Source: a virus. Taken from it: a stretch of 64,000 nucleotides of DNA. The translations under genes and the position numbers were made by a program. The notes under the pieces were generated by a model, which was not told the origin of the DNA, did not search any database, and saw only the letters and a program-made list of their open reading frames with translations. The stretch lies in IMG/VR virus record IMGVR_UViG_3300031994_000101, positions 1 through 64,000 of that record. One strand, 5' to 3'. Within the stretch, counting starts at the first letter, position 1; every line of letters begins with the position of its first letter. Shown piece by piece: positions 15,681-39,655 of the stretch.

Positions 15681-16067
15681 ATGGAAACAACACTGATTAT
15701 TTTCCGCATCATGGCAAGCATTGTCAATGGGTTGCTGATAGCACTGGCAATAACCGTTTACTTTTACATGCACCGACATCAGCAGAAGATGAAGGACATC
15801 ACGAATATGTTGGTGAGGCTGTTTGTCATCACGATGGGTGAACACCTGCGCCACAATTTCGATCAGCTGAAAGAAATGAAAGAGGTCCTGCAAGAACTTA
15901 TAGCCGCCGAACGCTATGAGGACGCCAAGCGTCTGAAAGCCGTCATCGACGATCATGCGCAACAAACCTTGGAGGAGCTACGCCGTTTCAAGGAGGAGTT
16001 CGGTGACAAAGTGATAAAGATGGATTTGACGAAGATATGCGAGCCGACAAACGAAGAGGAGGACTGA
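15681..16067 (+). CDS. membrane-anchored hypothetical protein (128 aa)
   Basis: ORF, N-terminal hydrophobic helix; downstream gene preceded by GGAGGACTGA. Confidence 0.5.
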   Translation: METTLIIFRIMASIVNGLLIALAITVYFYMHRHQQKMKDITNMLVRLFVITMGEHLRHNFDQLKEMKEVLQELIAAERYEDAKRLKAVIDDHAQQTLEELRRFKEEFGDKVIKMDLTKICEPTNEEED

Positions 16068-16070
16068 GGC

Positions 16071-16292
16071 ATGACCAAAGAACAGCAGATAGCTCACTGG
16101 GTTCCGTTCGTTGACATCGTACTGACCGCCGAGAACAACATATCAGACATGGAGAGGCATGCGCTCATTGCCGCTCGTGGCACGGGCGAAAGCATGGAGC
16201 GGCGAGCCATCGAGCGATATATCCGCGCCGTCGCCACTGAAATCGTGGAGCGCGGCGGCATGGCGTTCGAGGGCGGAGAACTGAGAGATTGA
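16071..16292 (+). CDS. hypothetical protein (73 aa)
   Basis: ORF preceded by GAGGAGGACTGAGGC-ATG. Confidence 0.5.
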   Translation: MTKEQQIAHWVPFVDIVLTAENNISDMERHALIAARGTGESMERRAIERYIRAVATEIVERGGMAFEGGELRD

Positions 16293-16756
16293 ACCGTATA
16301 ATGAATTTTAAAAACCTAACGACAATGCGAGTACACAGATTTATGAGCGACGCGGAATACGAGGTGCTGGTGGCTGGCGGACGGCTGATGAATGCCACCG
16401 ACCATGCCAAGGATCGCGGTCAGCTGACCGACAGCATCGGCTTCTGCTTCTTCACCGAGGATCCCGACAAGGCGATACACTGGCTCTCAGGCTGCTGCTA
16501 TCCCGACCACTGCGTGACGCTTGACATCCCTGACCACATGCTCCGCCCCAGCACCGCCACCTACCGCGACCCTGAGCGCGACGACCTGACGCGAGGCCCC
16601 ATCATGGGCGGACACCGCCCCACGATGCAGAAGCGCGAGTACTGTCTGACGAGTTACGCACTCAGCGACGGCGTGACCATCATCGCCGACACCGAAAAAT
16701 ACCGCGAATACGCCGACCTGCGCCGGGCGATGCAGGCCATCGGACTAATAAACTGA
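16289..16756 (+). CDS. hypothetical protein (155 aa)
   Basis: ORF, start overlaps upstream stop. Confidence 0.5.
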   Translation: MNRIMNFKNLTTMRVHRFMSDAEYEVLVAGGRLMNATDHAKDRGQLTDSIGFCFFTEDPDKAIHWLSGCCYPDHCVTLDIPDHMLRPSTATYRDPERDDLTRGPIMGGHRPTMQKREYCLTSYALSDGVTIIADTEKYREYADLRRAMQAIGLIN

Positions 16757-16762
16757 ACGACT

Positions 16763-16990
16763 ATGGCAGCAACAATTACCCCCCCCAAGAGCCGTTTCCT
16801 CGGCAACGGCCTTTCTCGCACGGCGATGCTTTTCAAGATTGCCACGCTGGCGGGCCATCGTCTGACCATCCCGGAGATGAACCGCTTCAAGGACGTCAAC
16901 CCCCGACAGCTGGAGCACGTATATGAAGAGGTAGTACGCATGGGCGACCCCGGCAATGCCCTCTTCGCCCTCAGACTGTTATTAAAATAA
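16763..16990 (+). CDS. hypothetical protein (75 aa)
   Basis: ORF. Confidence 0.4.
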   Translation: MAATITPPKSRFLGNGLSRTAMLFKIATLAGHRLTIPEMNRFKDVNPRQLEHVYEEVVRMGDPGNALFALRLLLK

Positions 16991-17019
16991 TTATTCACCA
17001 ATTTAAAACAAAAACGATT

Positions 17020-17871
17020 ATGGATCAGAAAACAATCAAGCGGCTCAGCGCCGTGGCAGCCTCGGTGCTGCTCGTGTTAATCATCTTCTTCGCCTGCTGC
17101 ACGGTAGTCGACTCAGGCGAAGTGGGCATCAAGTTCCACAAGTGGTCGGCCTCTGAACAGGACTACGGCGGCGTCGAAGGGACGTGCAAGGGCTGGGTGT
17201 TCTATAACCCTATCACCACCTCGGTGTTCACCTACCCCACGTTCACGCAGCGCAAGCAGTATGAGACCATCAAGGTGAACGCCAAGGATGCTTCTATCTT
17301 TGAGATGGACCCCACCATCGCCTACCACATCAACCCGGCCAAGGCGTGCGACATCTTCGTGAAGTACCGCGTCGATGTGAAGTCGCTGGAAGACGGGTAC
17401 ATCCGCACCTGCATATACGAGGCCTACCGCACCTGCGCTAACCAGTACACGTCGGACTCGCTGATGTCGAACCGTGCCAACTTCGAGCGCGACGTGCGCT
17501 CACGACTGGAGAAGTCGATGATGGCAGAGGGCTTCCTCGTCGAGGAGTTCACGTCGAAGATTACCCCACCCGCCTCGCTGACGAGTATGATAGACGCTAA
17601 GAACGCTGCCATCCAATCTGCCCTGAAGGCAGAGAACCAGGTGAAGGAAGCCGAAGCCAACGCAAAGATCGACGTGGCTAAGGCCGAGGGTGCCGCTCGT
17701 GCCATGCGCATCAAGGCCGATGCCGAGGCATACTACAACAAGACCATCGCCGCCTCTTTGAGCCCGATGATTATTCAGGAGGATATGATAGAGAAATGGG
17801 ATGGCAAGATGCCGCAGATTGTAGGCGGCAACGGCATGATGCTCGACATAAGTAAGGTAATGGGGAAGTAA
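17020..17871 (+). CDS. SPFH/band-7 (prohibitin/HflC-like) membrane protein
   Basis: N-terminal TM helix then ..VVDSGEVGIKFHKW.. and Ala/Glu/Lys-rich coiled-coil C-terminus typical of SPFH family. Confidence 0.6.
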   Translation: MDQKTIKRLSAVAASVLLVLIIFFACCTVVDSGEVGIKFHKWSASEQDYGGVEGTCKGWVFYNPITTSVFTYPTFTQRKQYETIKVNAKDASIFEMDPTIAYHINPAKACDIFVKYRVDVKSLEDGYIRTCIYEAYRTCANQYTSDSLMSNRANFERDVRSRLEKSMMAEGFLVEEFTSKITPPASLTSMIDAKNAAIQSALKAENQVKEAEANAKIDVAKAEGAARAMRIKADAEAYYNKTIAASLSPMIIQEDMIEKWDGKMPQIVGGNGMMLDISKVMGK

Positions 17872-17875
17872 GGCT

Positions 17876-18190
17876 ATGGGAACATCAACCATCGTATATA
17901 TCCTGAGTGTGGTAGCGTCGCTCTATGCGACCTACCTGCTCGCCTACCGTCTGTACGACGTGCCGGAAATCGAGGAGCTTGAGCCAGAGCGTATCGTCCT
18001 GCCGAGGATTGTCTACATCGCGGCCTTGATTATGGCATTCATTCCTTTGCTGAACATCATTGCCCTCGTATTCTTTGTCGTCATGCCGCAAGCGGGCAAA
18101 TCCTGTGGCGACTTCCAGATAAAGTCCTGGCTCTTCGAGAAGCCTGAAATGAAAACCGACAACACCGACAATAACCCTGAAAAGAAATAG
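17876..18190 (+). CDS. small membrane protein (2 TM; possible NfeD-like partner of SPFH protein)
   Basis: ORF, two hydrophobic segments, immediately downstream of SPFH gene. Confidence 0.45.
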   Translation: MGTSTIVYILSVVASLYATYLLAYRLYDVPEIEELEPERIVLPRIVYIAALIMAFIPLLNIIALVFFVVMPQAGKSCGDFQIKSWLFEKPEMKTDNTDNNPEKK

Positions 18191-18194
18191 AACT

Positions 18195-18524
18195 ATGACA
18201 ACAAAGAAGAAACCAACCGCCGCCCCAGCCGAAGCGCAGGGTGACGCAAAAGACGAGAAGAAGAAAATGCTCACCGTGAGCGACGAGCGCATGCAGACCG
18301 TGATGCGCCATGTGGACCGTGGTCTGTCGAAGGCGCACGTCACCACCGTCGAGATGCTGATAGCCGCCCGCCAGATGACCGCCTCGGCGCTGGCACAGCT
18401 CTGCACCGACAACCCGCAGGCCGACCGGCTCCAGCTTATTGATGACGTATGCGCCGATCTGCGTCAGGTGCTCATGAAGCGCATCCTGCCCGAAATGGCC
18501 ATCACACCCAAGGGCGAGGCGTAG
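18195..18524 (+). CDS. hypothetical protein (109 aa)
   Basis: ORF. Confidence 0.45.
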   Translation: MTTKKKPTAAPAEAQGDAKDEKKKMLTVSDERMQTVMRHVDRGLSKAHVTTVEMLIAARQMTASALAQLCTDNPQADRLQLIDDVCADLRQVLMKRILPEMAITPKGEA

Positions 18525-18551
18525 TCACTAACCGCAAAAAAGCTACACACA

Positions 18552-19088
18552 ATGAAATTGAAACCAGTTTATGCCGCAGGGCGGAGCGTGAGACTGTCGC
18601 CGCTGCAGCGCATCATGCAGAAGACGGGGCGCAGGCCTACGGAGTGCCGGTGCCAGTTGTGCAAGCGCCAGTGCCACACGCCGTGTCTCGCCACGCCGCA
18701 GGACATCCTGCGGCTGATGGACGCCGGCTACACCTCGCGGCTGGCACCGACGCTCTGGGCGGCGGGCATGGTGATGGGAGTGACGAACCAGCCCGTGCCG
18801 CTGATACAGGCCCGCGTCGAGGACGGCGCGTGGGGCGGACTGCTCGACGTGGGAGCCAACTCGCACTGCACGTTCTTCACCGGCGACGGCCTGTGCGAGC
18901 TGCACGCCCAGGGACTGAAACCCACCGAGGGTCGCCTGTCGCACCACTCCATACGCATCGACAACTTCCGAGCCTCGAAGTCCGTGTCATGGACCGTGGT
19001 GCAGGAATGGCTCTCGCCCGACAATGCCGACGTCGTGGCCGAGGTGACCCGCCGCTACGGGGAGTATATGAAACAGTCACAACATTAA
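18552..19088 (+). CDS. Cys-rich putative metal-binding protein (178 aa)
   Basis: CRCQLCKRQCHTPC cluster near N-terminus. Confidence 0.45.
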   Translation: MKLKPVYAAGRSVRLSPLQRIMQKTGRRPTECRCQLCKRQCHTPCLATPQDILRLMDAGYTSRLAPTLWAAGMVMGVTNQPVPLIQARVEDGAWGGLLDVGANSHCTFFTGDGLCELHAQGLKPTEGRLSHHSIRIDNFRASKSVSWTVVQEWLSPDNADVVAEVTRRYGEYMKQSQH

Positions 19089-19102
19089 CGATTAAGAGCG
19101 AT

Positions 19103-19501
19103 ATGAAATCAAATGAACTGATGATAGGAAATTGGCTGTTTAACAGGAACATTAACAAGGCTATGCAAGTATATCCTATGATGTTTTCTCAAATGTTCCG
19201 TCGGACGCCAGAATCTACTACTGAGGATTATGGATTTTATCCTATCCCACTGGATACACGGCAGCTGGAGAAGAACGGCTGGAAGCTCAACGGAGACGAT
19301 GCGAAGTCCGCCCCCGGCACATGGACGGGTGGCGGCCTGATGCTGGAGCAGGAGCCCGACGGCGATGGATTTCGGATCGTGGTCACCAGCGACTACGACG
19401 ACGAGGACACCAACCGCACTCCCTTTGTCCTGCACTACCTCCACGAGCTGCAGAACGCCCTCCGCCTCTGCGGCATCGAGAAAGAGATTATTGCGTATTA
19501 A
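19103..19501 (+). CDS. hypothetical protein (132 aa)
   Basis: ATG in AAGAGCGATATG context; in frame with 3' part of a spurious 350-aa ORF. Confidence 0.5.
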   Translation: MKSNELMIGNWLFNRNINKAMQVYPMMFSQMFRRTPESTTEDYGFYPIPLDTRQLEKNGWKLNGDDAKSAPGTWTGGGLMLEQEPDGDGFRIVVTSDYDDEDTNRTPFVLHYLHELQNALRLCGIEKEIIAY

Positions 19502-19524
19502 CAATTTAAAAGCTACACAAGATT

Positions 19525-20163: not shown

Positions 20164-20183
20164 AACTACAAATTAAACGAATT

Positions 20184-20696: not shown

Positions 20697-20750
20697 GCAG
20701 GAAGAAGCATTCCGCATCGAGATTACCGAACGGCAGAAAACGGAGAAAGT

Positions 20751-21005: not shown

Positions 21006-21017
21006 AAGATAAGGTTA

Positions 21018-21389
21018 ATGAAAAAATTCAAAGTAACAGTAACCAGAGCCTGTGAATATGAGGTGACGGTTGACGAGAAGAAATGGGGCTTCACAAAGCA
21101 ACAGTCTTTTGAGCGCTCCCTCTGGAGACTACCAGTTTACGTCGACAAGGACGGCAATCTCGACGTAGAAGCCGCAGGCGGTTTTGCCAGGGCTCTGGCC
21201 GAGCAGACATCAAAACATGGCATCGGCATATTCATCGAGGGCTTCGGCATGTGCGGCACGGACAAAGAAATTGTGGACTACTGGAACAAACTGCAAAACC
21301 ACAAGGACAACCAATTCACCGACGGCCTGTATATCAGTGAGAACTACGACGAAATTGAGTCAGAGATTGAAGAAGTGAAGGAGGACTGA
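21018..21389 (+). CDS. hypothetical protein (123 aa, ends ..EVKED)
   Basis: ORF; 3' end carries GGAGGACTGA. Confidence 0.5.
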   Translation: MKKFKVTVTRACEYEVTVDEKKWGFTKQQSFERSLWRLPVYVDKDGNLDVEAAGGFARALAEQTSKHGIGIFIEGFGMCGTDKEIVDYWNKLQNHKDNQFTDGLYISENYDEIESEIEEVKED

Positions 21390-21393
21390 CACG

Positions 21394-22251
21394 ATGAACT
21401 GGAATATCAACAGCTGCGACGGCATCTACAATTCCTTCGACGTACATTTTACGTCGAAGTGTGACAACCGCTGCCCGCACTGTATCGACGCGCAGTATAG
21501 CGGCAAGGGCATCAAGCACCCCGACGCTCACGCCATCGCCAAGGCCATCATCGACCACCAGGAGGGCTTCGACGACGTGCTGTTCCTGGGCGGCGAACCT
21601 TGTCTGTTCCTGAAGGAGCTTTGTGACTGCATATTCATGATCAAGACCAATACACGGCTGAAATGCTACGTCACCACCTCCGTTCCCCACACATGCTACC
21701 GCCTTTACCCGAAATTCCTGGAGCTGGCAGAGCTGGCAGACGGCATAAACCTCTCCGTACAGCATTACCGCGAAGACATGGCCGATAAGATACGCTGCAC
21801 CACGTCGCGCTACGACCGTCAGGCATTCTACCGCGAGCTGCCGCACAAAGAGCGGTTTCGCATTCATTTGAATCTTGTGCGCCCCTACCTCTGCGACCGC
21901 AACGACGTGTTGTCCTGTCTCCAGCACTACGACAACATGGGATTTCCTGTCATTAAGCTCTCGGAGCTTCAGCGTGCCACCAACAGCTACGCATCGTTTG
22001 AGCAGATAATGGGCATACGTCTGCCGTCGCCATTTGCCCACGGTTGCCAGACATGGTTCGACATGCGTCAGCTGCTGCCCGAGTACAAAGGCCGGCTGTT
22101 GCTGAAACGCTCCTGCTTCCTGAACGAAGAGACGCGGCGGGCAAGCCTGGCGGACGGCATCAAGGTATTGCGCAAGTGTCTGGTCAGACCGCGACCACAA
22201 CACTATGCCGTAGTCTATGAAGACGGCTCACTCAGCAACGGGTGGGTATAA
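21394..22251 (+). CDS. radical SAM enzyme (CxxxCxxC, GGEP)
   Basis: FTSKCDNRCPHCID (Cx3Cx2C) and LFLGGEPCLF; 285 aa, no SPASM extension apparent. Confidence 0.65.
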   Translation: MNWNINSCDGIYNSFDVHFTSKCDNRCPHCIDAQYSGKGIKHPDAHAIAKAIIDHQEGFDDVLFLGGEPCLFLKELCDCIFMIKTNTRLKCYVTTSVPHTCYRLYPKFLELAELADGINLSVQHYREDMADKIRCTTSRYDRQAFYRELPHKERFRIHLNLVRPYLCDRNDVLSCLQHYDNMGFPVIKLSELQRATNSYASFEQIMGIRLPSPFAHGCQTWFDMRQLLPEYKGRLLLKRSCFLNEETRRASLADGIKVLRKCLVRPRPQHYAVVYEDGSLSNGWV

Positions 22252-22283: not shown

Positions 22284-22460
22284 ATGTGGACAAAATTTCT
22301 TAGAAACATGATGGCGCAACACGCGCTGAAGATGAGCCACTGCTCAACAGGTGGCGGTGCCTGTCACTGCACAAGTGGAGAAACCCTATACCGGAAGGTA
22401 GGCTACGGGCATTGCGCCACCTACGAGCCTGTCAACCGAGGTTTCGGGCACTGCGGGTGA
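22284..22460 (+). CDS. small Cys/Gly-rich peptide (58 aa from ATG; track ORF uses GTG at 22242)
   Basis: ..HCSTGGGACHCTSGETLYRKVGYGHCATYEPVNRGFGHCG; directly downstream of radical SAM gene. Confidence 0.3.
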   Translation: MWTKFLRNMMAQHALKMSHCSTGGGACHCTSGETLYRKVGYGHCATYEPVNRGFGHCG

Positions 22461-22479
22461 AAGATAGGAGGACTGAGCA

Positions 22480-23109
22480 ATGAGCAGACAAGGCAAGACA
22501 TGGACGTTCCTGCGTCCGAGCGACCCTGCAAGGGTTATCCGTTTCGATCCGACGGGCGAGGACTTCGGGGCGATGTACCTGGCACAGGGCTGGCTCCGCG
22601 ACCACGGCTACCGCTACGGTTCTACCGACTGGAGCAACTACGTGGCTGCCATGAAGGGCGAGCAGTACACACTGCCGCAGAAGCTCTACAACTTCAACCG
22701 CGAGGACTATATGCAGGTGACGGCAGTGATGTATTCCTGCAACTACCGCGAGGGCTGGGTGGAGGTATGGGTCGTGGAACCGATGTGGGTGCTCCACCTC
22801 TTTCTCGAATACCGCTGGTACGACATGATTCTAAGCGGTGAGAAAACCGAGGAGTACCGCCGCTTCTGCAAGCGGTGGAACAAGGCATTTACCGGCATCA
22901 GTACCGACGGTGCTCCACTGTTTTCATTCCGCAACGGCTATCAGCAGCCCAACGTGAACGGCTACACCCACGTCTGCCTGCACCGTGGCTACACCTCCAC
23001 GACGGTCACCTACCGCATCAACGCCGTCACCATCGGCCAGGGGCGCACCGACTGGGGAGCGCCCGACGGCGAGGATGTGTATATCATCAAGCTGGGAGAA
23101 AGGTATTAA
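22480..23109 (+). CDS. ASCH (PUA-like) domain protein
   Basis: GxKxxExR motif: ILSGEKTEEYR; preceded by GGAGGACTGA. Confidence 0.5.
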   Translation: MSRQGKTWTFLRPSDPARVIRFDPTGEDFGAMYLAQGWLRDHGYRYGSTDWSNYVAAMKGEQYTLPQKLYNFNREDYMQVTAVMYSCNYREGWVEVWVVEPMWVLHLFLEYRWYDMILSGEKTEEYRRFCKRWNKAFTGISTDGAPLFSFRNGYQQPNVNGYTHVCLHRGYTSTTVTYRINAVTIGQGRTDWGAPDGEDVYIIKLGERY

Positions 23110-23129: not shown

Positions 23130-23750
23130 ATGACAAAGAAACAACGAGACCGCAAGAACCGCAAGCGAGCTATAAAGGTGGGCGAGCTGAGTCTGAAGGA
23201 CTGCACCGTCCGCTACGTCGATGTACAGTTTCTGATGAAGGTCGGTGGCAAGGTGTTCGGCGGCAAGCGGTTCCATTACCAACGGGACCGGTCCACGTCG
23301 GCCAGCGATCTGGAGTTGCTGGCGCGAATCATTATGAGCTGGGAGAAGACCGTTGACTTCGGCACCACTCACGCCGACGAGTTTCTGCGCGAAGTGGAAG
23401 GCCGCATAGCCAACCGCAGCGGGCTGACAGCCGACGAACTTTTCCGCAAGTACTGGGTGAACTACCGAGAGACCGTGGAGCAGGAGTTTGAGCGCGACAA
23501 CAAGGGTGTCGCCGATCACCCGCTCTATCAGCACGAAAACGACTGCCTGAAGTACAGGGCCGCCATGTGGCTGCACAGCTTCTTCAACGAGCCGCTGCCC
23601 ATAAAGCTCGCCTTGCTTTACGGCATCTACCGCATAGGCTATGCCGCCGACGGCTTCGACGGCATGCGGCAGGAGATAGAGCAGATACCGCATACCATCC
23701 GTGATATCGTGGACGGGATGATAGTAAAGAGTAAAAATAAGGAGGACTGA
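23130..23750 (+). CDS. hypothetical protein (206 aa, ends ..KNKED)
   Basis: ORF. Confidence 0.5.
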   Translation: MTKKQRDRKNRKRAIKVGELSLKDCTVRYVDVQFLMKVGGKVFGGKRFHYQRDRSTSASDLELLARIIMSWEKTVDFGTTHADEFLREVEGRIANRSGLTADELFRKYWVNYRETVEQEFERDNKGVADHPLYQHENDCLKYRAAMWLHSFFNEPLPIKLALLYGIYRIGYAADGFDGMRQEIEQIPHTIRDIVDGMIVKSKNKED

Positions 23751-23753
23751 ATT

Positions 23754-24179
23754 ATGCCAATATTAAACATTGAACTGAGTGACTATGATGCGCTCAGAGA
23801 CAGAGTGAAACAACTGGAGTGTGAGAACAAGAACCTTTCGGAGGCCATCGAAGACAAAGCAGAGGATGGTCGTCTGAGGGTTATCAAGAAGACGGTGACA
23901 ATAACGCTCAACCCGTGGAAGACGGTCAACGAACACGCATTGGATTCATGCACCGAGAAGTACGAGTTCCTGAACTTCGACGATATTGAGCAGGAGGCCA
24001 AGAGCCAGTTTTATAAGGACATGGCTAACCGCATCCAGAGCCAGGAGCGGCAGGAAATCTCAGAGCTGAAAGAGCAGTTGAAGCATAGCCAGGAGCAACT
24101 TGACAGTTCGCTCGGGCGCATCGACCGGCTAATGAAGCGCAACTGGTGGAACAGACTGTGGAATAAAGGAGCGGAATAG
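23754..24179 (+). CDS. coiled-coil hypothetical protein (141 aa)
   Basis: ORF. Confidence 0.5.
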   Translation: MPILNIELSDYDALRDRVKQLECENKNLSEAIEDKAEDGRLRVIKKTVTITLNPWKTVNEHALDSCTEKYEFLNFDDIEQEAKSQFYKDMANRIQSQERQEISELKEQLKHSQEQLDSSLGRIDRLMKRNWWNRLWNKGAE

Positions 24180-24184: not shown

Positions 24185-24592
24185 ATGGAAGCAAAAGAGT
24201 TAATGGCTGGCGACATCGTTAGGCAGAAGCACAGCGGACTGATTCTGAAAGTCTCTGAAATAGTACCGCCGTACATCAGAGCAGAAGGCGAAGACGGACA
24301 GTTTCACGAAGACACCGTAGAGCCAATACCACTCTCTGCCGAGTTCTTCGACAGCATCGGGTGGCACCGCATGGAGGGCGGCAAGTACGACAAACGCTAT
24401 TTCTGGGCAGACGACTCCTGCGAGATGACGGCACACGAGTTCAATGACGGCATGTGGCACGTGGGGCATGACTGCATCGAAATGGGCGGATTCCCCATTG
24501 AGTGCGTGAACATCGGTTGGGTACATGAGTTGCAACATTTCATAACCCACTGCTCGGTGGATATGGAGATTAAGCTAAAGAAGGGGGACTGA
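24185..24592 (+). CDS. hypothetical protein (135 aa)
   Basis: ORF. Confidence 0.5.
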   Translation: MEAKELMAGDIVRQKHSGLILKVSEIVPPYIRAEGEDGQFHEDTVEPIPLSAEFFDSIGWHRMEGGKYDKRYFWADDSCEMTAHEFNDGMWHVGHDCIEMGGFPIECVNIGWVHELQHFITHCSVDMEIKLKKGD

Positions 24593-24596
24593 GCGT

Positions 24597-24815
24597 ATGA
24601 CGAGATACACATTGATGCTATTTCAGATGGCATACCCCGAGCAGATAAAAATCGACAAGAGCAAAGTGAAAGACGGCATTCACATAGAGTGCTGGCTTCT
24701 TAATGAAGACAAAGAACCTCACATGCTTTTATTCGATGGCGGTCCGTTTCCGACGGAAGAGAAAGTTAATGATACGATCCAGAAATTACTGGCAGTACAA
24801 TTAAACGAACAGTGA
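24597..24815 (+). CDS. hypothetical protein (72 aa)
   Basis: ORF preceded by GGGGGACTGAGCGT-ATG. Confidence 0.45.
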   Translation: MTRYTLMLFQMAYPEQIKIDKSKVKDGIHIECWLLNEDKEPHMLLFDGGPFPTEEKVNDTIQKLLAVQLNEQ

Positions 24816-24941: not shown

Positions 24942-25319
24942 ATGATTAAGGACAACATGTTTTACAGCGACCCGACGCTGAAGGACTATCGGGAGATGGA
25001 CATTGAAAAGATTATCGAAGAGTATCTGCTGACCAAAGGCACTTGGTATAAATCTCCACTCAAAAACGAAAAGCCGAAGCAGATAAACAAAGTAGTGAGT
25101 GCAAAGAACCTTGTGTCTTCGGGGCTGTTTGTCTATGGACTGAAAGACAATCCGACGAATAAGCGGGCTGTAGAATACTACTGCGAGCGGTGGGGACATA
25201 TACACCAGATTATCGACGAGCATGACGTGATACGAATCCCTGAAGATTTATGGAACCGATGCGACGAGTACAACCGAATACACACCAACGGCAATGACCG
25301 CAAACCAATGGAGGACTGA
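24942..25319 (+). CDS. hypothetical protein (125 aa, ends ..PMED)
   Basis: ORF; start context AGAACGATATG. Confidence 0.5.
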   Translation: MIKDNMFYSDPTLKDYREMDIEKIIEEYLLTKGTWYKSPLKNEKPKQINKVVSAKNLVSSGLFVYGLKDNPTNKRAVEYYCERWGHIHQIIDEHDVIRIPEDLWNRCDEYNRIHTNGNDRKPMED

Positions 25320-25323
25320 GCGT

Positions 25324-25809
25324 ATGAATTTATCAGAAGACATCAGAAAAGAGATTTGGCAAATGGCTTCTACCCCTGAAAGCGTGTGCTATATTGAGAA
25401 GCACGACGGTGAGGGGTTCAAGGTGGAAGAGATTGACGGCGACTACTGTCATTTCTGTGCCACCGAGAAAGCGAGGGAGCTCGACAAAGAGAACGGCGGT
25501 AAGTATTATCATCAGGTATATGAAGAGACATCGCCAGAGAGCGACCATTTCAGCCATTGCGCGGAGTGCGGCTGCCTGCTCAATGCCGCGCTGATCGTCT
25601 GCAGCTGGAATGAAGATGACATCAACTGTATTGTTGAAGATTTGAAGCAGGTGAAATCTTTTGAGGACATCAAGGGCGACCTTGCGTGGAAAATTGACCA
25701 GGTACTCGACAGCGAGGATGAAGCCTGCGAGTGGTTCCCCAAACAGATGAAATATATCGGCAGGAGGTTGAGTAATCTTTATAAGAAAGAAAGGAGGACT
25801 GAACGATGA
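25324..25809 (+). CDS. Cys-rich hypothetical protein (start moved to ATG 25324 after GGAGGACTGAGCGT)
   Basis: ORF 25294..25809 in track; downstream ATG has conserved upstream motif. Confidence 0.45.
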   Translation: MNLSEDIRKEIWQMASTPESVCYIEKHDGEGFKVEEIDGDYCHFCATEKARELDKENGGKYYHQVYEETSPESDHFSHCAECGCLLNAALIVCSWNEDDINCIVEDLKQVKSFEDIKGDLAWKIDQVLDSEDEACEWFPKQMKYIGRRLSNLYKKERRTER

Positions 25810-29154: not shown

Positions 29155-29167
29155 GGAGGACTGAGCG

Positions 29168-29692
29168 ATGAAAATAGAGGAAGGCAAGCAGTATTACTTC
29201 TACGACGACAGGGCAGAGGAAGATGTGTGCAAGGCTCATGTGTTGCACATTCTGCCCCACCCGGAGCGAGAAGACGACAGGTTGATTGTATATCGCTGGT
29301 ACGGCAAGCACCGGCAGCGTTGGTGGTATGGCACGACAACCGTCAGCCAGCAGGAACTATGGGCTGACTATGTTCAAAAGGTCATCGCCTGTAGGAAGAA
29401 TCGGAGGATGTGCCGGAAATGCGGACAATGCGGCTACTACATGGCCTATGTAAAGACAGACGGCACGAAAGACCACTACGGCGACTGTGCCAGCATTGGC
29501 ATGAATAAAGAATGCGACGAGAGGAACAACCACTACAAGGGTCCCGTCGAACTTCTTCTGCAAGTGGACGAAAAAGAGGATGCCTGCGGATTCTTCAAGA
29601 CGAAGCGTATCAAGCGAGTCAAGGAGTACATCAAGACGCACCCCAAAGACTACTACCAAGAAACGAACTTCAAGCCGCTGCCAGTGCGATGA
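29168..29692 (+). CDS. hypothetical protein (174 aa), Cys-rich
   Basis: ORF preceded by GGAGGACTGAGCG-ATG. Confidence 0.5.
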   Translation: MKIEEGKQYYFYDDRAEEDVCKAHVLHILPHPEREDDRLIVYRWYGKHRQRWWYGTTTVSQQELWADYVQKVIACRKNRRMCRKCGQCGYYMAYVKTDGTKDHYGDCASIGMNKECDERNNHYKGPVELLLQVDEKEDACGFFKTKRIKRVKEYIKTHPKDYYQETNFKPLPVR

Positions 29693-29744: not shown

Positions 29745-30254
29745 ATGATAGAAAGATTTTTTTATGAAACATTAAGCGAAGAACTGACGATGCGCGGGTT
29801 TTTCGTTGCAACAGAACACGCGCCGGAGAACTGCATAGGCATTTGCGGTATCAATGGCACGGAGAAACGAGTCAAGTATGTGAAGTGTTTGCAGGAGAAC
29901 TACCGTCTGGCTGCAATCAAGAACATTATCTTCAACATCGGAAACGACGGTCGCGGCGATTGCGTAGGCGGATGGTATGAGGTTCTTGTCGGTTCGCGGA
30001 CCAGAGAGCCGTTCCCGATGATATTCATCAATCTGAAGTACAACGAGCGGTACTACAAGATGGCTTATCAGTGCGGAAACATCCGCGACTTCATCCGCGA
30101 CAACGACGGCAAGGAGGCCACGCGCTACGTCGTGGCGTGCATCAAGCACATGACCTCCTCGCTGATGGACGTGCTACACGAATGGATTTCAGATGGCAGA
30201 TTCCCGTTGCACATGTTTGCCGAAGGTTCGGAAGATATTATTATGGAGGACTGA
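29745..30254 (+). CDS. hypothetical protein (169 aa, ends ..IMED)
   Basis: ORF. Confidence 0.5.
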   Translation: MIERFFYETLSEELTMRGFFVATEHAPENCIGICGINGTEKRVKYVKCLQENYRLAAIKNIIFNIGNDGRGDCVGGWYEVLVGSRTREPFPMIFINLKYNERYYKMAYQCGNIRDFIRDNDGKEATRYVVACIKHMTSSLMDVLHEWISDGRFPLHMFAEGSEDIIMED

Positions 30255-30257
30255 GCA

Positions 30258-30659
30258 ATGCAAGCATTTGAAATCAAGACCAACAAGAGCGACTATCCGT
30301 TCCTGATAATCGCCAACGGATTCAAGCGGGCAATCGAGATGCTGTATCAGAAGGGCATCTACGACACTGACATCGTTTCGGTGCAGCAGCTGGAGACATA
30401 CAAGAGCGACCACATCCTAATCGAAGAGCGGCTGACCTCAAAGGAAACGCTCCGCGAGGAAGTGCGCCGCGAGTTGCAGAAGGACATGCCGCGCTGGATG
30501 CCCGAGCCAAACGGCGCGGCTGGCGGCGGCGAACGAGACCGCTATCTGATAAGGACATCAAAAGGGCATTACTTCACATCAAAGGTCATCGGTGGCAACA
30601 ACCACTACCTTGTACTCGACACGCTGGAGCAACTGCCAGGATTACCAATGGAGGACTGA
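30258..30659 (+). CDS. hypothetical protein, paralogue of 33438..33845 product
   Basis: MQAFEIKTNKSDYPFLIIANGF.. vs MKAFEIKTTNSDYPFLVLAEGF.. collinear similarity. Confidence 0.55.
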   Translation: MQAFEIKTNKSDYPFLIIANGFKRAIEMLYQKGIYDTDIVSVQQLETYKSDHILIEERLTSKETLREEVRRELQKDMPRWMPEPNGAAGGGERDRYLIRTSKGHYFTSKVIGGNNHYLVLDTLEQLPGLPMED

Positions 30660-30662
30660 ACT

Positions 30663-31004
30663 ATGGCAGAAAGACGCTACTATATCCGCTTCGGCGGCAT
30701 ACCAAGAAACGAGCAGTCTATTGCATGGACTGCCGAGAACGAAATCAAAGGCAATGAGCCGGGCGTATCAGTATATGATGCTTTGTATCTCGACGAACCA
30801 GATGGAGGCTGGAATTGGCACCTTGTCATGCCGCAGCCCATCACTGAGAAGATGCTGAACACGTTGTACGGTCTCATCAACTACCAAAAACGACAGGTGT
30901 ATATAGTCGAAGGTGAGTTTGTCGGGCGAGGCTCTGACAATGAGCCGTGCATCCGCAATGTTGTCATCGTCGAGAATGTCACTGACAAATTCAAGGTGCT
31001 GTAG
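30663..31004 (+). CDS. hypothetical protein (113 aa)
   Basis: ORF. Confidence 0.5.
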   Translation: MAERRYYIRFGGIPRNEQSIAWTAENEIKGNEPGVSVYDALYLDEPDGGWNWHLVMPQPITEKMLNTLYGLINYQKRQVYIVEGEFVGRGSDNEPCIRNVVIVENVTDKFKVL

Positions 31005-31472: not shown

Positions 31473-32198
31473 ATGAAGAAAAGAAACTACAAGCGCATCT
31501 TCCGCCCAGGCACGCTGTTCCGCGTGGCGGGCAGCAACGCCGTGTTCATGTCGCTCGGACTGAACCCGAAGGACAACCGGCAAATATTCTCATTCAACGG
31601 TATGGACATCGTGCGCCGCTGTGCCGTGAAGCGTGCCGACGGTCGCGCCGTGCCCGCCACCATGCGCGAGCAGCAGACCTACTGGGCCGTGATGCGCGAG
31701 GTGATAGCACGGCGCGAGGAAGTACCGAAATTCTCGCCGGGCCAATGGATTACTGAAATCAGCACCGGGCGCTACGACCTGGTTGAGAACTACAGCAACG
31801 GCTACTACACCTGCGAGAATAGCGGATTCCCGAAGATCTACGAAGTGTGCTACCGCCGCTGGAACATCAACGACGCACGCCCCGGCGACATCCTCTTCTA
31901 TTACCCCACGCAGATGGCCTTCATCTTTAAGGGTATCGAGGGCGACGACCGCAAGCTGAAGCTCTTCTGCAGCTGCGACACCGAGGAACCCGAACAGCCA
32001 GGAGCCTTCCAGCTCTACGACGAAGACGAGTATTTTGGACGAGTCGACGACCTCGGCATCACCCCCGCCGACAACAAGCAGCGCCGAACGATGCTTGCCA
32101 AGATGTCCAGAGAAGGCTACGACTTAGGCTCTGGCAAGGACGGGCGGCTGGTACTGGTGAAAATACGGAATAACGACAAGGAGGACCCGCAGCCATGA
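31473..32198 (+). CDS. hypothetical protein (241 aa)
   Basis: ORF downstream of A/T-box+hairpin element. Confidence 0.5.
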   Translation: MKKRNYKRIFRPGTLFRVAGSNAVFMSLGLNPKDNRQIFSFNGMDIVRRCAVKRADGRAVPATMREQQTYWAVMREVIARREEVPKFSPGQWITEISTGRYDLVENYSNGYYTCENSGFPKIYEVCYRRWNINDARPGDILFYYPTQMAFIFKGIEGDDRKLKLFCSCDTEEPEQPGAFQLYDEDEYFGRVDDLGITPADNKQRRTMLAKMSREGYDLGSGKDGRLVLVKIRNNDKEDPQP

Positions 32199-34643: not shown

Positions 34644-34705
34644 TTTTTAATCTAATTTTTAATCAATTTCTCGCCGACAGGCGATGATAAAAAACAAAGA
34701 GCGAT

Positions 34706-34867
34706 ATGAAAATAGTAAGATTTGACAGCAAAGGAAACTGCCAGTTCGTTTATTTCAACTGGCGCAAGTTTAAGTTCATGACATCCTGCTGGGCCAACAG
34801 CCTTCAGGGACTGCTCGGCAAGACGAGTGAGAAGAAACATCTGGTAATCGGCTTGTGGAATCATTAA
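34706..34867 (+). CDS. small hypothetical protein (53 aa)
   Basis: AAAAAACAAAGAGCGATATG start context. Confidence 0.35.
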   Translation: MKIVRFDSKGNCQFVYFNWRKFKFMTSCWANSLQGLLGKTSEKKHLVIGLWNH

Positions 34868-34881
34868 AGGAGGACTGAGCC

Positions 34882-35022
34882 ATGGGAGAAATGAAATGGA
34901 AATTTAACCTGTTCGGCATCCGTATCGGGTGGCACAAATACTTTTCAGCCGTTTGTTACGACCGCAGGAACCGTCTCCTGCAAATCGGCAAACTGGAACT
35001 CTGGTTTTATGGATTGAATTAA
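34882..35022 (+). CDS. small hypothetical protein (46 aa)
   Basis: preceded by AAGGAGGACTGAGCC-ATG. Confidence 0.3.
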   Translation: MGEMKWKFNLFGIRIGWHKYFSAVCYDRRNRLLQIGKLELWFYGLN

Positions 35023-36677: not shown

Positions 36678-37223
36678 ATGAAACAAGAGACATTGAAAAA
36701 AGCGAAAGACCTTGAAAATAAAATCAGTGAATACGGAGATTTGCTGCTGAGCAGAGGTGCCAATTATCACACGATGCTCATCAGCATCTCCTGTGCCTAT
36801 TCCAACGACCGGGATATATACCACGGGAGGGTAAGCAAGGAGGTATGGAACAAGATGCTCGACGTGGTGGCAGAGGATGGACTGAAGACTAAGCAGGAGT
36901 TGGAAGCCCTCACCGACGACACGACAGACGCAGACCCGGAGATAATAACCGACGTGCCAGAGGCCGACATGACAGGCGGCAAGTCCAAGCCTGCTGACAA
37001 GCCGCAGAAGGACTCGTGTACGGACAAGTTCATTAGGTCGATGGAACGGCTGGCGAGTTGGATGCTATACTCTATGATCTTCTGCTTCCTGCTCGGAGTG
37101 GCAGGGCTGGAGCTTTCAATACGCGAAGCCGTAGCCTACTCGCTGATGCTCGGCCTGATTACAGGCTCCATCAACAATCTGGAACGGGTAATAAGGGAAC
37201 TTTTCGGAAAGAAGGAGGGCTGA
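36678..37223 (+). CDS. hypothetical protein (181 aa) with C-terminal TM segment
   Basis: ORF, AAGGAGATATG start. Confidence 0.5.
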   Translation: MKQETLKKAKDLENKISEYGDLLLSRGANYHTMLISISCAYSNDRDIYHGRVSKEVWNKMLDVVAEDGLKTKQELEALTDDTTDADPEIITDVPEADMTGGKSKPADKPQKDSCTDKFIRSMERLASWMLYSMIFCFLLGVAGLELSIREAVAYSLMLGLITGSINNLERVIRELFGKKEG

Positions 37224-37226
37224 GAC

Positions 37227-37571
37227 ATGACGAAAATCAGCGAACTACGCAAGCGACTTGGCATGGATAGCCGCGTTGGGCAAGTGAAATGTCACAAGTG
37301 CGGCAAGACACTTGACATACCCAACATGTATTCAGAGAAAGAGCGAAACGCCGTGCTGAAACCCTACTGCTGCGCCACGACTGTGCTCATCGTACAGTGG
37401 CTCATCCATCACGGGTGGCACGTCACGACGCACGATGCCAACCCCGCCGGGGCGTACTTCTGCCCCGACTGCTTCCCCAAGGGGCAACCAGAGTACAGCC
37501 GCAGTGCAGCAGGCAAGGAGTGGTGCAAGCAGGCTGAGCAATGGATGAAAGAGAATAATGGTAAACGATAA
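37227..37571 (+). CDS. zinc-finger hypothetical protein (114 aa)
   Basis: CHKCGK..CPDCF. Confidence 0.5.
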   Translation: MTKISELRKRLGMDSRVGQVKCHKCGKTLDIPNMYSEKERNAVLKPYCCATTVLIVQWLIHHGWHVTTHDANPAGAYFCPDCFPKGQPEYSRSAAGKEWCKQAEQWMKENNGKR

Positions 37572-37604
37572 AAAACGACCACATGACTAAATCAAAAGAG
37601 CGAT

Positions 37605-38423
37605 ATGAAAGAAGAACTAATGTATTGGATCCGTAAATGGGAACTGGACGAAAATCTCATTTACAAGAAAGCCGGAGAGAAGCAAGCCGCTTTTGTCCGC
37701 AGTCAGATTTGCGGCAACCTGCTGCACACCCACGGCTTCGTGGTGAGCACACACTATTCCAAGTCGTGCGAGCTGCCAGTGTATTTCCTGAAGCTGCGCA
37801 ACGGCATCAAGCTGATTATGCGCTGCAACTTCTACGACTGGAAGGTGAGCGTAGAGATACCCGACGACTACGAGCCGCTACCCAAGGACTACCTGCCCAC
37901 CGACTGCCTCAGTCACAGCATGGTGGAGAACAAGGGCGAGAGGATAGCGCCCTGCTACATGGAGGGATTCCGCAAGGAGTGGTGCTACGATGCTTACATC
38001 CCCGAGCAGCCCGGCAAGAAATTCTCCATCGAGATACCCGACGACTGCCGCCTCTATGTCATCATCCACCGACTGAAGCACGCCTATCCCGACGTGGCAT
38101 TCGACCCATCGACCGACCATCGGACGGTGGAACAGATAAAAGAGTCTATCGACAAGATACTGGCCGACAACGGATTCCTCGACATGCGCGATGACGAGAG
38201 CTGGGGCAAACCCGTGAAGCAGAGCGTGATGAGCGCTTGGGAAATCATCTGGCAGACCTACCAGAAGATGGACGATTTGTATTACGCCGGAAAGATGACC
38301 GGCAAGGAGATGCCGACGGTTTCAGAGGATTCGCAGGAGTACGCCAAGGTCATCATGCGCTTCCCAGAAGTACACGAGGAGTTCCTGCGTGAGGAATGTA
38401 TGTATAACGATAAGATAGACTGA
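37605..38423 (+). CDS. hypothetical protein (272 aa)
   Basis: ORF; AAAAGAGCGATATG. Confidence 0.5.
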   Translation: MKEELMYWIRKWELDENLIYKKAGEKQAAFVRSQICGNLLHTHGFVVSTHYSKSCELPVYFLKLRNGIKLIMRCNFYDWKVSVEIPDDYEPLPKDYLPTDCLSHSMVENKGERIAPCYMEGFRKEWCYDAYIPEQPGKKFSIEIPDDCRLYVIIHRLKHAYPDVAFDPSTDHRTVEQIKESIDKILADNGFLDMRDDESWGKPVKQSVMSAWEIIWQTYQKMDDLYYAGKMTGKEMPTVSEDSQEYAKVIMRFPEVHEEFLREECMYNDKID

Positions 38424-38429
38424 CACCGT

Positions 38430-39053
38430 ATGAAACTACTGCGCAAGACACTCGACTTCTTCAATATCCACCCCGACCACAACCAGCGGTGGACGCTGAC
38501 GACGCTGTTCCTGACGGGGTTGCTCTACACTTATGTTGAGCCAGCCATCACCAAGGCGTGGATTTCGGAGTTGCCCGCCGAGTGGCTGGCATTCCAGTCG
38601 CTCACCTACAGCGTTGTGGGTCTCGTGATTGGCATGATATGGAAGGGCCGGCTGCGCCGCTGGGCTGTCCGGTGGTTTACGGTGCTCTGCATCATCGAGT
38701 CGGCGGCAGGCTTCCTCGTCGGCATGTGGCTCTGCTTCGTGGACTACAACGTGTGGGTACTCGCCATCGCCTGCCTGCTCTACGGCACGTTGGTGTCGGA
38801 GTTCATCGGAAAGTGTCTGATGACCTTCCGCCCCAAGCTGTGGAACGAGAAGGAGCGCGAGGTGTACGACAACAACAACGACGTGGTGTGCGGCATCTAC
38901 TGCATCGTGGGCTACGTCTGCGCCCTCGTCTGCATGCCATCGCTGCAGGTGGCCATGTTCGTGTTTGGACTGACCTGCGGGCTCGACAACATCGGTTGGC
39001 TTGTGGTGTACCACAAGAACCGCGACCGCTTCCGGGAGTTAGATAACGAGTAA
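38430..39053 (+). CDS. integral membrane protein (207 aa, multi-TM)
   Basis: ORF, hydrophobic stretches. Confidence 0.5.
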   Translation: MKLLRKTLDFFNIHPDHNQRWTLTTLFLTGLLYTYVEPAITKAWISELPAEWLAFQSLTYSVVGLVIGMIWKGRLRRWAVRWFTVLCIIESAAGFLVGMWLCFVDYNVWVLAIACLLYGTLVSEFIGKCLMTFRPKLWNEKEREVYDNNNDVVCGIYCIVGYVCALVCMPSLQVAMFVFGLTCGLDNIGWLVVYHKNRDRFRELDNE

Positions 39054-39079
39054 AACATTTAATTATTTATAAGAACGAT

Positions 39080-39571
39080 ATGAAACAGACAGACAACAAC
39101 GCAATTAAGTTTGAACCCGGCGACATCGTGGAGGTGACCGCCGACATGACACTTAGCACTGACGACGGCGGTACGACTCTTTTAATGTTTGGCCGCGAGG
39201 GAGAGGTAGTAGCACAATACACCGACTGGGGAGGCAACGAGGCAGTACTCGTCAAGTTCGACGGGTTCACCCGCCCCATCCTCGCCTCCGACCTCGCCCT
39301 GAAGCAGAAGGCCGAGAAGTCGCTCCGCCAGATAGCCGAGGAGAAGGTGGAGCCGATGAAGCGCGAGAACGACCCCGCCGCCTGCACCATCGACCCCGCC
39401 CTCTACTGCCAACTGAGCCGCCTGGGCATCCTCGACACATCGGTACGCTCGCACAACGTCGGCGAGAGCGACTACTCGCAACGCATCATCCAGCCGTGGA
39501 GCATCATCCAGGAGTACCGGCTTAACTACTGGGACGGCGACATCATCAAGCGCGTGCTGCGCCACAAGTAG
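39080..39571 (+). CDS. hypothetical protein (163 aa)
   Basis: ORF; AAGAACGATATG. Confidence 0.5.
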   Translation: MKQTDNNAIKFEPGDIVEVTADMTLSTDDGGTTLLMFGREGEVVAQYTDWGGNEAVLVKFDGFTRPILASDLALKQKAEKSLRQIAEEKVEPMKRENDPAACTIDPALYCQLSRLGILDTSVRSHNVGESDYSQRIIQPWSIIQEYRLNYWDGDIIKRVLRHK

Positions 39572-39655
39572 AGCGACCCCCGCCGACTGGACTACGAGAA
39601 AATCATTCACATCTGCGAGGAGCGCATCCGGCAGATAGAGAAGGAGGACTGACCG

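Follow-up and report, generated by a model that had tools for sequence, protein, structure and literature searches.

A recurrent Shine-Dalgarno and stop-codon motif at tight gene junctions in a family of large phages with probable Bacteroidales hosts

We analysed a 64,000-nucleotide stretch of viral DNA (IMG/VR record IMGVR_UViG_3300031994_000101, positions 1 to 64,000; hereafter the window), in which a short motif, written (AA)GGAGGACTGA, recurs just ahead of the start codons of closely packed genes. The motif merges a ribosome-binding site with a stop codon; the full signal in the family of related phages is AAGGAGGACTGA (10-12 bases), and in a bicistronic layout it would stand as upstream open reading frame (ORF)-AAGGAGGACTGAgcaATG-downstream reading frame. 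Comparative analysis of the sequences leads us to favour, with moderate confidence, a reading in which the motif would act as a Shine-Dalgarno (SD)-driven termination-reinitiation junction and would also serve as a standard joint for the exchange of gene cassettes.

In the current view, Bacteroidia ribosomes ignore SDs save at one or a few autoregulated ribosomal genes, and Bacteroidetes do without SD reinitiation. More than 40 independent, near-identical strong SDs that appear to be under selection, at the spacing that function would call for and at stop-restart junctions only, in one phage lineage, would amount to a natural experiment and point to some ribosomal state of these hosts in which the anti-SD can be used. 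The motif copies provide ready test sequences for the timing of the release of the sequestered 16S tail, which might occur on post-termination complexes, on subunits poor in bS21 or bS18, or during infection. The motif would also be a second, independent example of a start-associated sequence, with a clearer rationale than the mycobacteriophage case, as well as a concrete case of a standard junction for gene-cassette swapping and a practical aid for calling the starts of ORFans in Bacteroidales phages. These points concern both Bacteroidia translation and phage mosaicism.

The motif and its junctions

Eleven exact copies of GGAGGACTGA were found in the window, all on the + strand, against 0.15 expected from dinucleotide-preserving shuffles, none of which (0/100) contained 11 copies or more; the looser pattern GGAGG-N5-10-ATG occurs 27 times against 12.4 expected. 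No complement of the motif is present on the minus strand of the window. Together with three variants, the copies define 14 junctions in the accessory, non-structural 16-47 kb of the window. An ATG follows every copy by 3-4 nt in the window (2-4 nt in relatives), and this ATG is the earliest possible start codon of its ORF in 12 of the 14 cases. Nine genes begin at motif-linked ATGs in independent JGI/ENA gene calls on near-identical contigs. The junctions, in window coordinates, are as follows.

16058..16073, + strand: GGAGGACTGA-ggc-ATG; TGA ends gene 15681-16067 (..EEED); ATG opens 16071-16292; free energy (dG) -11.0
21380..21396, + strand: GGAGGACTGA-cacg-ATG; TGA ends an ORF finishing at 21389 (..VKED); ATG opens the radical SAM gene 21394-22251
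22467..22482, + strand: GGAGGACTGA-gca-ATG inside a 19-nt spacer; the motif TGA is no stop; ATG opens 22480-23109
23741..23756, + strand: GGAGGACTGA-att-ATG; TGA ends 23130-23750 (..NKED); ATG opens 23754-24179
24583..24599, + strand: variant GGGGGACTGA-gcgt-ATG; TGA ends 24185-24592 (..KKGD); ATG opens 24597-24815
25310..25326, + strand: GGAGGACTGA-gcgt-ATG; TGA ends 24942-25319 (..PMED); ATG opens 25324-25809
25793..25809, + strand: GGAGGACTGA-acg-ATGA; in a different frame, gene 25324-25809 crosses the motif and terminates at the ATGA overlap; ATG opens 25806-26282
29155..29170, + strand: TAA-GGAGGACTGA-gcg-ATG; the upstream TAA (29152-29154) abuts the motif; ATG opens 29168-29692
30245..30260, + strand: GGAGGACTGA-gca-ATG; TGA ends a gene finishing at 30254 (..IMED); ATG opens 30258-30659
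30650..30665, + strand: GGAGGACTGA-act-ATG; TGA ends 30258-30659 (..PMED); ATG opens 30663-31004
34869..34884, + strand: TAA-a-GGAGGACTGA-gcc-ATG behind the 53-amino-acid ORF 34706-34867; ATG opens the 46-amino-acid ORF 34882-35022
37214..37229, + strand: variant GGAGGGCTGA-gac-ATG; TGA ends a gene finishing at 37223 (..KKEG); ATG opens 37227-37571
39643..39658, + strand: GGAGGACTGA-ccg-ATG; ATG opens 39656-40009; TGA closes no canonical ORF
47021..47036, + strand: degenerate variant AAGGACTGA-gcgt-ATG; TGA ends a gene finishing at 47029 (..KGKD); ATG opens 47034-47219

The motif TGA is the upstream gene's stop codon at nine of the 14 junctions (16058, 21380, 23741, 24583, 25310, 30245, 30650, 37214 and 47021), the upstream proteins then ending in ..ED, ..GD, ..EG or ..KD, and wherever the motif is read as a gene end its frame is always xxG-GAG-GAC. 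At 22467, 25793, 29155 and 34869 the actual stop either precedes the motif by 1-6 nt or shares bases with the ATG. In 13 of the 14 junctions the stop falls within 19 nt of the ATG, 39643 being the exception. The motif is kept in all three frames relative to the upstream gene, in short non-coding spacers and behind unrelated upstream genes. A first-pass annotation, made from the letters of this DNA, had described the 11 exact copies with an ATG 2-4 nt behind each, the TGA as upstream stop in most copies, the four junctions with the stop elsewhere, a constraint acting on RNA, strong SD-like signals and a possible coupling mechanism. These points were borne out by our data, coupling to the upstream gene in so far as it fits the near-exclusive siting at tight junctions described below; the three variants exist as well, although their coordinates had to be shifted by 1-5 nt (24583, 37214 and 47021 instead of 24588, 37213 and 47017).

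Two junctions need comment, the first of which involves the following ORF.

22284..22460, + strand: unannotated, conserved, Cys/His/Gly-rich ORF of 58 amino acids, with a TGA stop 6 nt before motif 22467

Junction 22467 counts as tight because this ORF ends 6 nt before the motif, that is, 19 nt before the ATG; it is found in L005, L007 and L008 (our handles for related contigs) with 82% amino-acid identity and in-frame indels. The ORF and the adjacent radical SAM gene 21394-22251 might form a precursor/maturase pair for a ribosomally made peptide with post-translational modifications (RiPP). At the second junction, gene 39080-39571 ends in TAG and the next 26 codons (39569-39652, + strand) are open in frame, ending in ..IEKED at the TGA of motif 39643. 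This open stretch could be the remnant of a former gene end, a readthrough product or the outcome of a recent nonsense mutation. TAG recoding, which the stretch called to mind, was rejected: the 17 TAG stops are otherwise normal, and the window contains no tRNA or suppressor. A copy of GGAGGGCTGA at 31448 was dropped from the set, being not start-associated and occupying the hairpin slot of an intergenic repeat.

The AAGGAGG part of the motif is perfectly complementary to the 16S tail 5'-ACCUCCUU-3' published for Bacteroidetes (PMC3155529); this anti-SD is present in nearly all Bacteroidetes 16S genes (PMC3155529), and duplex energies between the motif and the published tail, which may differ from the host's, range from -9.3 to -11.1 kcal/mol. 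The SD core is 8-9 nt from the ATG in the window and 7-9 nt in the 41 non-redundant copies gathered from the family, among which A stands at position -1 in 33/41 and at position -2 in 31/41 (~80%), so that pairing extends to CCUCCUU. No conservation was detected upstream of position -2 in these copies. Nor did we find conserved RNA structure or a hairpin around the motif, its translation initiation regions being slightly less open than those of other starts (unpaired probability 0.52 vs 0.58-0.62). The Bacteroidetes -33/-7 promoter consensus was not enriched either (1 match vs 0.33 expected), and neither Rfam families nor tRNAs were found in the window.

Strong SDs, defined by an energy of -7 kcal/mol or lower (the criterion of Jha et al., PMC7797042), precede 21 of the 106 window genes (20%), as against 7/106 in mock upstream windows, leaving 80% of the genes with none. 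Their distribution is markedly uneven. At tight junctions, with 15 nt or less between the upstream stop and the next start, 16 of 38 genes have a strong SD vs 5 of 66 at wide junctions (Fisher p=6e-5), and the five wide cases include one 16-nt gap, one gene behind ORF 22284-22460, and two doubtful starts or genes. The same concentration was seen in five relatives, for instance 10/16 tight vs 0/14 wide in L005, 7/12 vs 2/20 in L009 and 6/10 vs 1/23 in L010. At 13 of the 14 motif junctions the gene pairs are co-directional and overlap or lie less than ~20 nt apart, and SDs are enriched at the tight pairs, as is typical of termination-reinitiation. Leaders of SD-less genes are A-rich (43-45% A, 34-36% GC) in a genome of 54% GC, a pattern described for Bacteroidetes by Accetto and Avgustin (PMC3155529). 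Both kinds of start are illustrated by two paralogues: gene 30258, at a tight junction, has the SD motif, whereas gene 33438, behind a 28-nt spacer, has AAGAGCGAT. Nine genes of the latter kind carry a second start repeat, AAGAGCGATATG (ATG included), in exact copies that are all on the + strand, the expectation within one mismatch being 0.43; the repeat did not turn up in those loci of the relatives that were examined, which cover partly different regions. The remaining strong SDs of note and the copies of the second repeat are listed here.

32180..32197, + strand: strong SD without TGA at a 4-nt overlap junction, AAGGAGGACccgcagccATG(A); opens 32195-32368
41205..41219, + strand: strong SD at a 4-nt overlap junction, AAGGAGGGtgcagaATG; opens 41217-41846
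47471..47488, + strand: strong SD at a 4-nt overlap junction, TGGAGGACagcgaggcATG; opens 47486-48004
892..905, - strand: sole strong canonical SD of the minus-strand block, GGAGGTGAGCTATG; opens gene 550-894, 16 nt past the upstream stop
19094, 33149, 33429, 33852, 34697, 35050, 37596, 44954 and 48418, + strand: AAGAGCGATATG at SD-less junctions with A-rich spacers of 15-60 nt

Two other roles for the bases after the SD core were considered and rejected. ACUGA shows no complementarity to the published tail ACCUCCUU and is not known to be complementary to the adjoining 16S bases. A prfB-like, SD-stimulated +1 frameshift or readthrough is discounted because the downstream ORF has its own ATG and spacers of 2, 3 or 4 nt enforce no frame; moreover, the SD overlaps the codon before UGA (G-GAG-GAC-UGA) and there is no slippery codon.

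Conservation and cassette boundaries in related phages

The window is part of a large phage, the genome of which we estimate at 110-135 kb from its relatives. The motif is conserved in at least eight related phage contigs of 108-135 kb, and the 41 non-redundant copies lie 2, 3 and 4 nt before the ATG in 8, 24 and 9 cases, respectively. The same 10-mer precedes starts in L005/6, L007, L008, L009/L149, L010, L056, L098, L102 and L152 (GC 0.47-0.57), and variant forms occupy orthologous junctions in L150 and L151. A megablast search of the region against INPHARED phages gave no match.

Orthologous junctions indicate which part of the motif is held constant. Upstream of the radical SAM gene (four phages) and of gene 25806 (five phages, with orthologues in L150, L151 and L152), the flanks are unrelated and AAGGAGGA is invariant. 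At the radical SAM junction, with unrelated genes ahead of it, the motif is retained in L005 and L008 and replaced by GGAGGATTGA in L007. Bases 7-10 vary, with C, T or A and then TGA, CAAG or CCGA, and the forms observed include GGAGGATTGA and GGAGGAATGA, as well as GGAGGACAAG with an upstream TAA and GGAGGACCGA with an upstream TAG. The orthologue of junction 24583 in L007 and L008 reads AAGGAGATAA-aggc-ATG, which is another SD plus stop, and one gene has the full motif in L098 and an SD-less version in the window. Since AAGGAGGA is invariant while bases 7-10 drift, the SD core at fixed spacing emerges as the selected feature; the remainder of the motif is Glu-Asp-stop in preferred codons.

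The 10-mer itself is not specific to the family. Among the matches listed in an IMG/VR scan for GGAGGACTGA-N2-4-ATGA, most are single copies in unrelated contigs, and several belong to SD-using phages in which the same 10-mer is one SD variant among many; such phages have SDs at 70-87% of their genes, at wide and tight junctions alike. What does seem particular to the family, to judge from these comparisons, is that this 10-mer has a monopoly there and is confined to tight junctions in a genome poor in SDs.

The motif also coincides with boundaries of exchanged genes. L009/L149 (IMGVR_UViG_3300011989_000005) is 97-98.6% identical to the window and differs from it by a two-gene replacement (genes 22480-23750) bounded by motifs 22467 on the left and 23741 on the right, and by a 668-bp, one-gene insertion at motif 25793 with a copy of the motif on each side; in addition, homology stops at the final base of motif 30245. 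Two further breakpoints lie away from motifs, one of them being a 6.9-kb deletion at a microhomology of 12 nt: L009/L149 is without window positions 15260-22148, the microhomology lying at 15248-15259 and 22149-22160, and the deletion fuses the gene for an Rv2179c-like exoribonuclease to the radical SAM gene's 3' end. Overall, comparison of the window with L009/L149 gives 6 junction breakpoints, of which 4-5 coincide with motifs, present at ~36% of junctions (binomial p ~0.03, hand calculation). In 3-4 other phages, the radical SAM module (motif to motif) and the motif-led gene 25806 are found in different neighbourhoods, and four block ends between L007 and L008 lie 0-7 nt from motifs.

With the upstream stop and the downstream SD sharing one sequence, only crossovers inside the motif keep both genes intact. 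We propose from these alignments that the motif doubles as a standard joint for swapping cassettes, with recombination probably taking place within it and not beside it. The crossover constraint may explain a uniformity of AC and TGA that exceeds the needs of an SD.

Host, mechanism and alternative explanations

Several lines point to a Bacteroidales host. The best host clue is a TnpB/IS605 gene (60679-61824, + strand; OrfB_IS605 and a Cas12f1-like TNB domain), the product of which is 87% identical to the copy of a rumen Prevotella metagenome-assembled genome (MAG) and 89% identical to that of a sheep-omasum Bacteroidaceae MAG; at the nucleotide level the gene is 86% identical to one copy, from a contig of a rumen Prevotella MAG, and nearly all other matches are from Bacteroidales. 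A primase-like gene (weak CHC2 zinc-finger match) has Polaribacter and Bacteroides phages as its nearest and only cultured relatives, and the A-rich, SD-less leaders point the same way. The window further encodes three DNA methyltransferases, DUF4494, DUF3127 and many ORFans; nearly all motif-led genes are ORFans, and no functional theme was apparent among them in PHROGs and Pfam. Taken together, the family would consist of large rumen or gut phages of Bacteroidales.

The following gene is given for context only.

14450-14671, + strand: IF-1 gene (PF01176, E=5.9e-22)

Apart from the near-identical 3300011989_000005, homologues of this IF-1 (56-100% identity) are encoded on 11 further IMG/VR contigs, which range from 5 to 170 kb. 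IF-1 and the motif co-occur in the lineage, and co-occurrence alone is what the data show. The first-pass annotation had rightly taken the DNA for that of a Bacteroidetes-type phage, which its leaders, DUF4494 and DUF3127, the primase and TnpB relatives and a weak, sub-cutoff Fib_succ_major match all support, and had rightly identified the phage's own IF-1. Its two explanations of the motif, namely an atypical, SD-using host and a phage-specific mechanism, fare less well, as discussed below.

In the mechanism that we favour, AAGGAGG would be the SD, ACTGA would supply the last codon of the upstream gene and its TGA stop, and the next ATG would follow 3-4 nt on. A ribosome would terminate the upstream gene at the motif or within ~20 nt of it and stay on the mRNA. 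Its 16S tail ACCUCCUU would then pair with AAGGAGG, 8-9 nt upstream of the ATG, bringing this codon into the P site, and the same ribosome, or its 30S subunit, would restart. The motif would be used where genes are packed too tightly for the 15-60 nt A-rich, SD-less leader of de novo initiation. Crossovers inside such a uniform junction would join any gene ending in ..E-D-stop to any gene with SD and ATG without damage, and this exchange would help to keep the 10-mer uniform. The distances between stop and start fit published work in which coupling was almost abolished at ~20 nt (Huber 2023, PMC10666635).

SDs at tight junctions are not confined to this family. Strong SDs are found at 3/26 tight junctions, all 4-nt overlaps, vs 0/20 wide ones in the cultured Bacteroides phage BT-TP2, at 2/17 tight junctions in the cultured Bacteroides phage B40-8, and at 6/34 tight vs 5/88 wide junctions in Bacteroidales MAG segments. 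By conserved operon order, rpsR, rplI, rplF, rplE, rplW and rpmD are operon-internal genes. Strong SDs precede these same genes in Bacteroidia, where the SD frequency is 1.7% of all genes (Jha 2021, PMC7797042, Table 1). The phage family thus appears to amplify, about five-fold, a minor native capacity that it did not invent. The idea of a phage-specific mechanism therefore lost ground, since these phages and MAG segments show the same at lower frequency and SD-using phages contain the 10-mer.

Several reports weigh against a coupled, SD-driven restart. The proteins bS21, bS18 and bS6 sequester the anti-SD, and Bacteroidia ribosomes are reported to be SD-blind (PMC7797042; Naeem 2026, PMC13000453); the ribosome of P. 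gingivalis apparently has the same sequestering proteins (PMC12123416). In the rumen bacterium Prevotella bryantii, a reporter gained no expression from an SD (Accetto 2011, PMC3155529), Bacteroidetes were found to use SDs neither for initiation nor for reinitiation, with fewer than 10% of overlapping pairs having one (Huber 2019, PMC6728339), and Cellulophaga phages were devoid of SDs in a phage survey (bioRxiv 10.1101/2021.04.21.440840). Our own data add to these objections. About half of the tight junctions are without any SD, as are the late or structural ones, and copy 39643 has no confirmed upstream stop nearby. The near-invariant AC and the strong preference for TGA, found in 48/52 stop-containing motif-like sites though TAA is the commonest stop overall, go beyond what an SD model needs. 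Boundaries at gene starts are expected under any gene-level mosaicism. Finally, the gene caller used grants a bonus to SD-preceded starts; the independent calls and the first-ATG positions concur with its starts.

The anti-SD might be released in the post-termination state, on bS21- or bS18-poor subunits, or by a phage factor. We advance only tentatively, as a rather doubtful proposition, that the Bacteroidales anti-SD is usable after termination or is unlocked by a phage that displaces or bypasses bS21/bS18, possibly with the help of IF-1. If true, the phages would possess a private, SD-dependent translation channel for exchangeable accessory genes, and the uniform 10-mer would be both its access code and a recombination joint.

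Among the alternatives, an unlikely one is that the SDs drive de novo initiation only on ribosomes with a free anti-SD, either host subunits without bS21 or bS18 or ribosomes remodelled by the phage IF-1 or by an unseen bS21/bS18 mimic, the accessory genes being a translational class under separate control. Such remodelling is disfavoured by the binding of IF-1 to the A site and not to the platform. The limitation of the motif to the accessory region is in keeping with a separate class, the phage and its relatives do encode IF-1, and a review (PMC12548453) credits IF1 and IF3 with enhancing 70S-scanning reinitiation; bS21-deficient ribosomes of F. johnsoniae gain SD recognition (PMC9976891; PMC13000453). 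The near-absence of SDs at wide junctions and at promoter-proximal genes is, however, left unexplained, and no bS21- or bS18-like protein or domain was found among the window proteins, which represent 64 kb of a 110-135 kb genome.

Somewhat harder to sustain is the view that the 10-mer is conserved mainly as a crossover point for microhomology or short-homology recombination, its likeness to an SD being secondary or a historical accident. The breakpoints between the window and L009/L149, the duplicated motif flanking the insertion at 25793 and the L007/L008 block ends all speak for it; the 12-nt microhomology deletion shows that such recombination happens, and the uniformity of AC and TGA exceeds what an SD requires. 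A pure linker should, however, be conserved evenly, whereas AAGGAGGA is invariant and bases 7-10 drift, and neither the fixed 8-9 nt to the ATG nor the complementarity to the anti-SD would be accounted for. Mosaicism places boundaries at gene starts anyway, making the coincidence partly trivial, and the second start repeat AAGAGCGATATG was missing from the relatives' loci examined, which cover partly different regions.

We consider it improbable that the motif is primarily a binding or cleavage site, through GGAGGACUGA, for an RNA-binding protein, a nuclease or a small RNA of phage or host that switches a class of genes. T4 RegB, which cleaves GGAG, and RegA have a resembling mode of action. 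ACTGA directly follows GGAGG in 41 of the 115 GGAGG-N5-11-ATG sites of the family and cannot pair with the published anti-SD region (hand comparison); the motif is limited to the accessory region, and the phage encodes the Rv2179c-like exoribonuclease. By the same argument, a host- or phage-encoded RNA or protein was left open for the Cluster K start-associated sequences (Pope 2011, PMC3203893). Against such a site, G-GAG-GAC-TGA reads as Glu-Asp-stop in preferred codons, and among internal GGAGGNN sequences GGAGGAC is likewise the most frequent; unrelated SD-using phages contain the 10-mer too, orthologous junctions differ at bases 7-10, and the window holds no complementary copy and no Rfam family. 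Ordinary SD usage by a host that is not SD-blind, and so not a typical member of the Bacteroidota, is highly improbable: 54% GC is high for many Prevotella and the host was assigned indirectly, but 80% of the window genes are without a strong SD and wide junctions have almost none, unlike the 70-87% at both junction types in SD-using phages, and the TnpB relatives are almost all Bacteroidales, the nearest cultured relatives of the primase are Bacteroidota phages, and DUF4494 and DUF3127 are present.

Other features of the window were recorded along the way. A diversity-generating retroelement (2639-6547, - strand) comprises a reverse transcriptase (3274-4470), a DUF4376 gene (2639-3187), and a template repeat (4510-4700) that is 91% identical to a variable repeat (5653-5843) at the 3' end of the target gene 5654-6547, the latter having the weak Fib_succ_major match. 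Genes for a Tad2-like (anti-Thoeris) protein (32424-32906) and an acyl-carrier protein (33158-33409) are also present. The adjacent genes 62454-62876 and 62902-63609 (+ strand) have a common N-terminus, MSKTKNQVIDQ, and nearly identical leaders, taacccccaaaaaacaNttcaagttATG, which suggests a local duplication with divergence of the C-terminal parts. An intergenic element occurs in four copies (31401-31438, 32355-32416, 34637-34696 and 47210-47270) and consists, in order, of an AT-rich promoter-like stretch, a stem of 4-5 bp capped by a GCAA or GACA loop, a leader rich in A, and the start codon; its stems covary.

Relation to known systems

The closest known system is that of the Start-Associated Sequences (SAS) described in Cluster K mycobacteriophages (Pope et al. 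2011, PMC3203893). Both are short asymmetric repeats in one orientation, with 11-19 copies per genome (13 bp for SAS, 10-12 bp here), located 3-7 nt ahead of overwhelmingly ATG starts in the non-structural region only, and the motif follows this pattern. Both combine an SD core with conserved flanks that cannot pair with 16S rRNA, sometimes hold the upstream stop inside the repeat, and are conserved across subclusters before unrelated genes. The sequences are nevertheless unrelated (GGGATAGGAGCCC in SAS), with only the GGAG core in common. About half of the SAS sites carry an upstream 17-bp inverted-repeat extension, the extended SAS or ESAS (PMC3203893), and nothing like it lies upstream of the motif. 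The SAS host, moreover, uses SDs normally, whereas the host phylum here is reported to be SD-blind, and the link to tight stop-start junctions and cassette breakpoints is explicit in the present case.

Coupling by termination-reinitiation (Huber 2019, PMC6728339; 2023, PMC10666635) resembles the present junctions in its co-directional genes, its stop and start within a few nt, and its SD inside the 3' end of the upstream gene; in haloarchaea, SD usage at coupled pairs can far exceed that of leading genes, and the distance limit is ~20 nt. The typical overlap there is 4 or 1 nt, whereas TGA-N3-4-ATG is the most frequent arrangement here; Bacteroidetes are, according to Huber et al., the only group without SD reinitiation, and the junction of this family is nearly monomorphic instead of a loose SD.

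The SD-led ribosomal genes of Bacteroidia offer a third comparison, and in Bacteroidales such genes are operon-internal, as operon order indicates. Strong SDs precede rpsU, rpsR, rplI, rplE and rplF despite the sequestered anti-SD (PMC7797042; PMC13000453), as in the phages. They differ in the proposed role, autoregulation by bS21- or bS18-deficient ribosomes, and in extent: a handful of genes (1.7%) there, as opposed to 20% of the phage genes and SDs at ~40-60% of tight junctions here.

Short, repeated expression signals that flank ORFans of a hyperplastic region and coincide with module shuffling are reportedly known from the PeSL cassettes of T4-type phages, said to have been described by Arbiol in 2010, and from the 'boundary sequences' of lambdoid phages, likewise ascribed to Clark in 2001; PeSLs are said, in the former work, to be ~50-70 bp units of promoter and hairpin acting in transcription. 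The motif resembles them in its cassette-boundary behaviour only, being 10-12 nt long, presumably translational, and free of promoter-like hexamers and hairpins, and the separate AT-rich and hairpin repeat of the window (31401, 32355, 34637 and 47210) looks closer to a PeSL than the motif does. On balance, we would class the motif as a start-associated sequence, or an SD-based junction for stop and restart, in a phylum not expected to have SDs.

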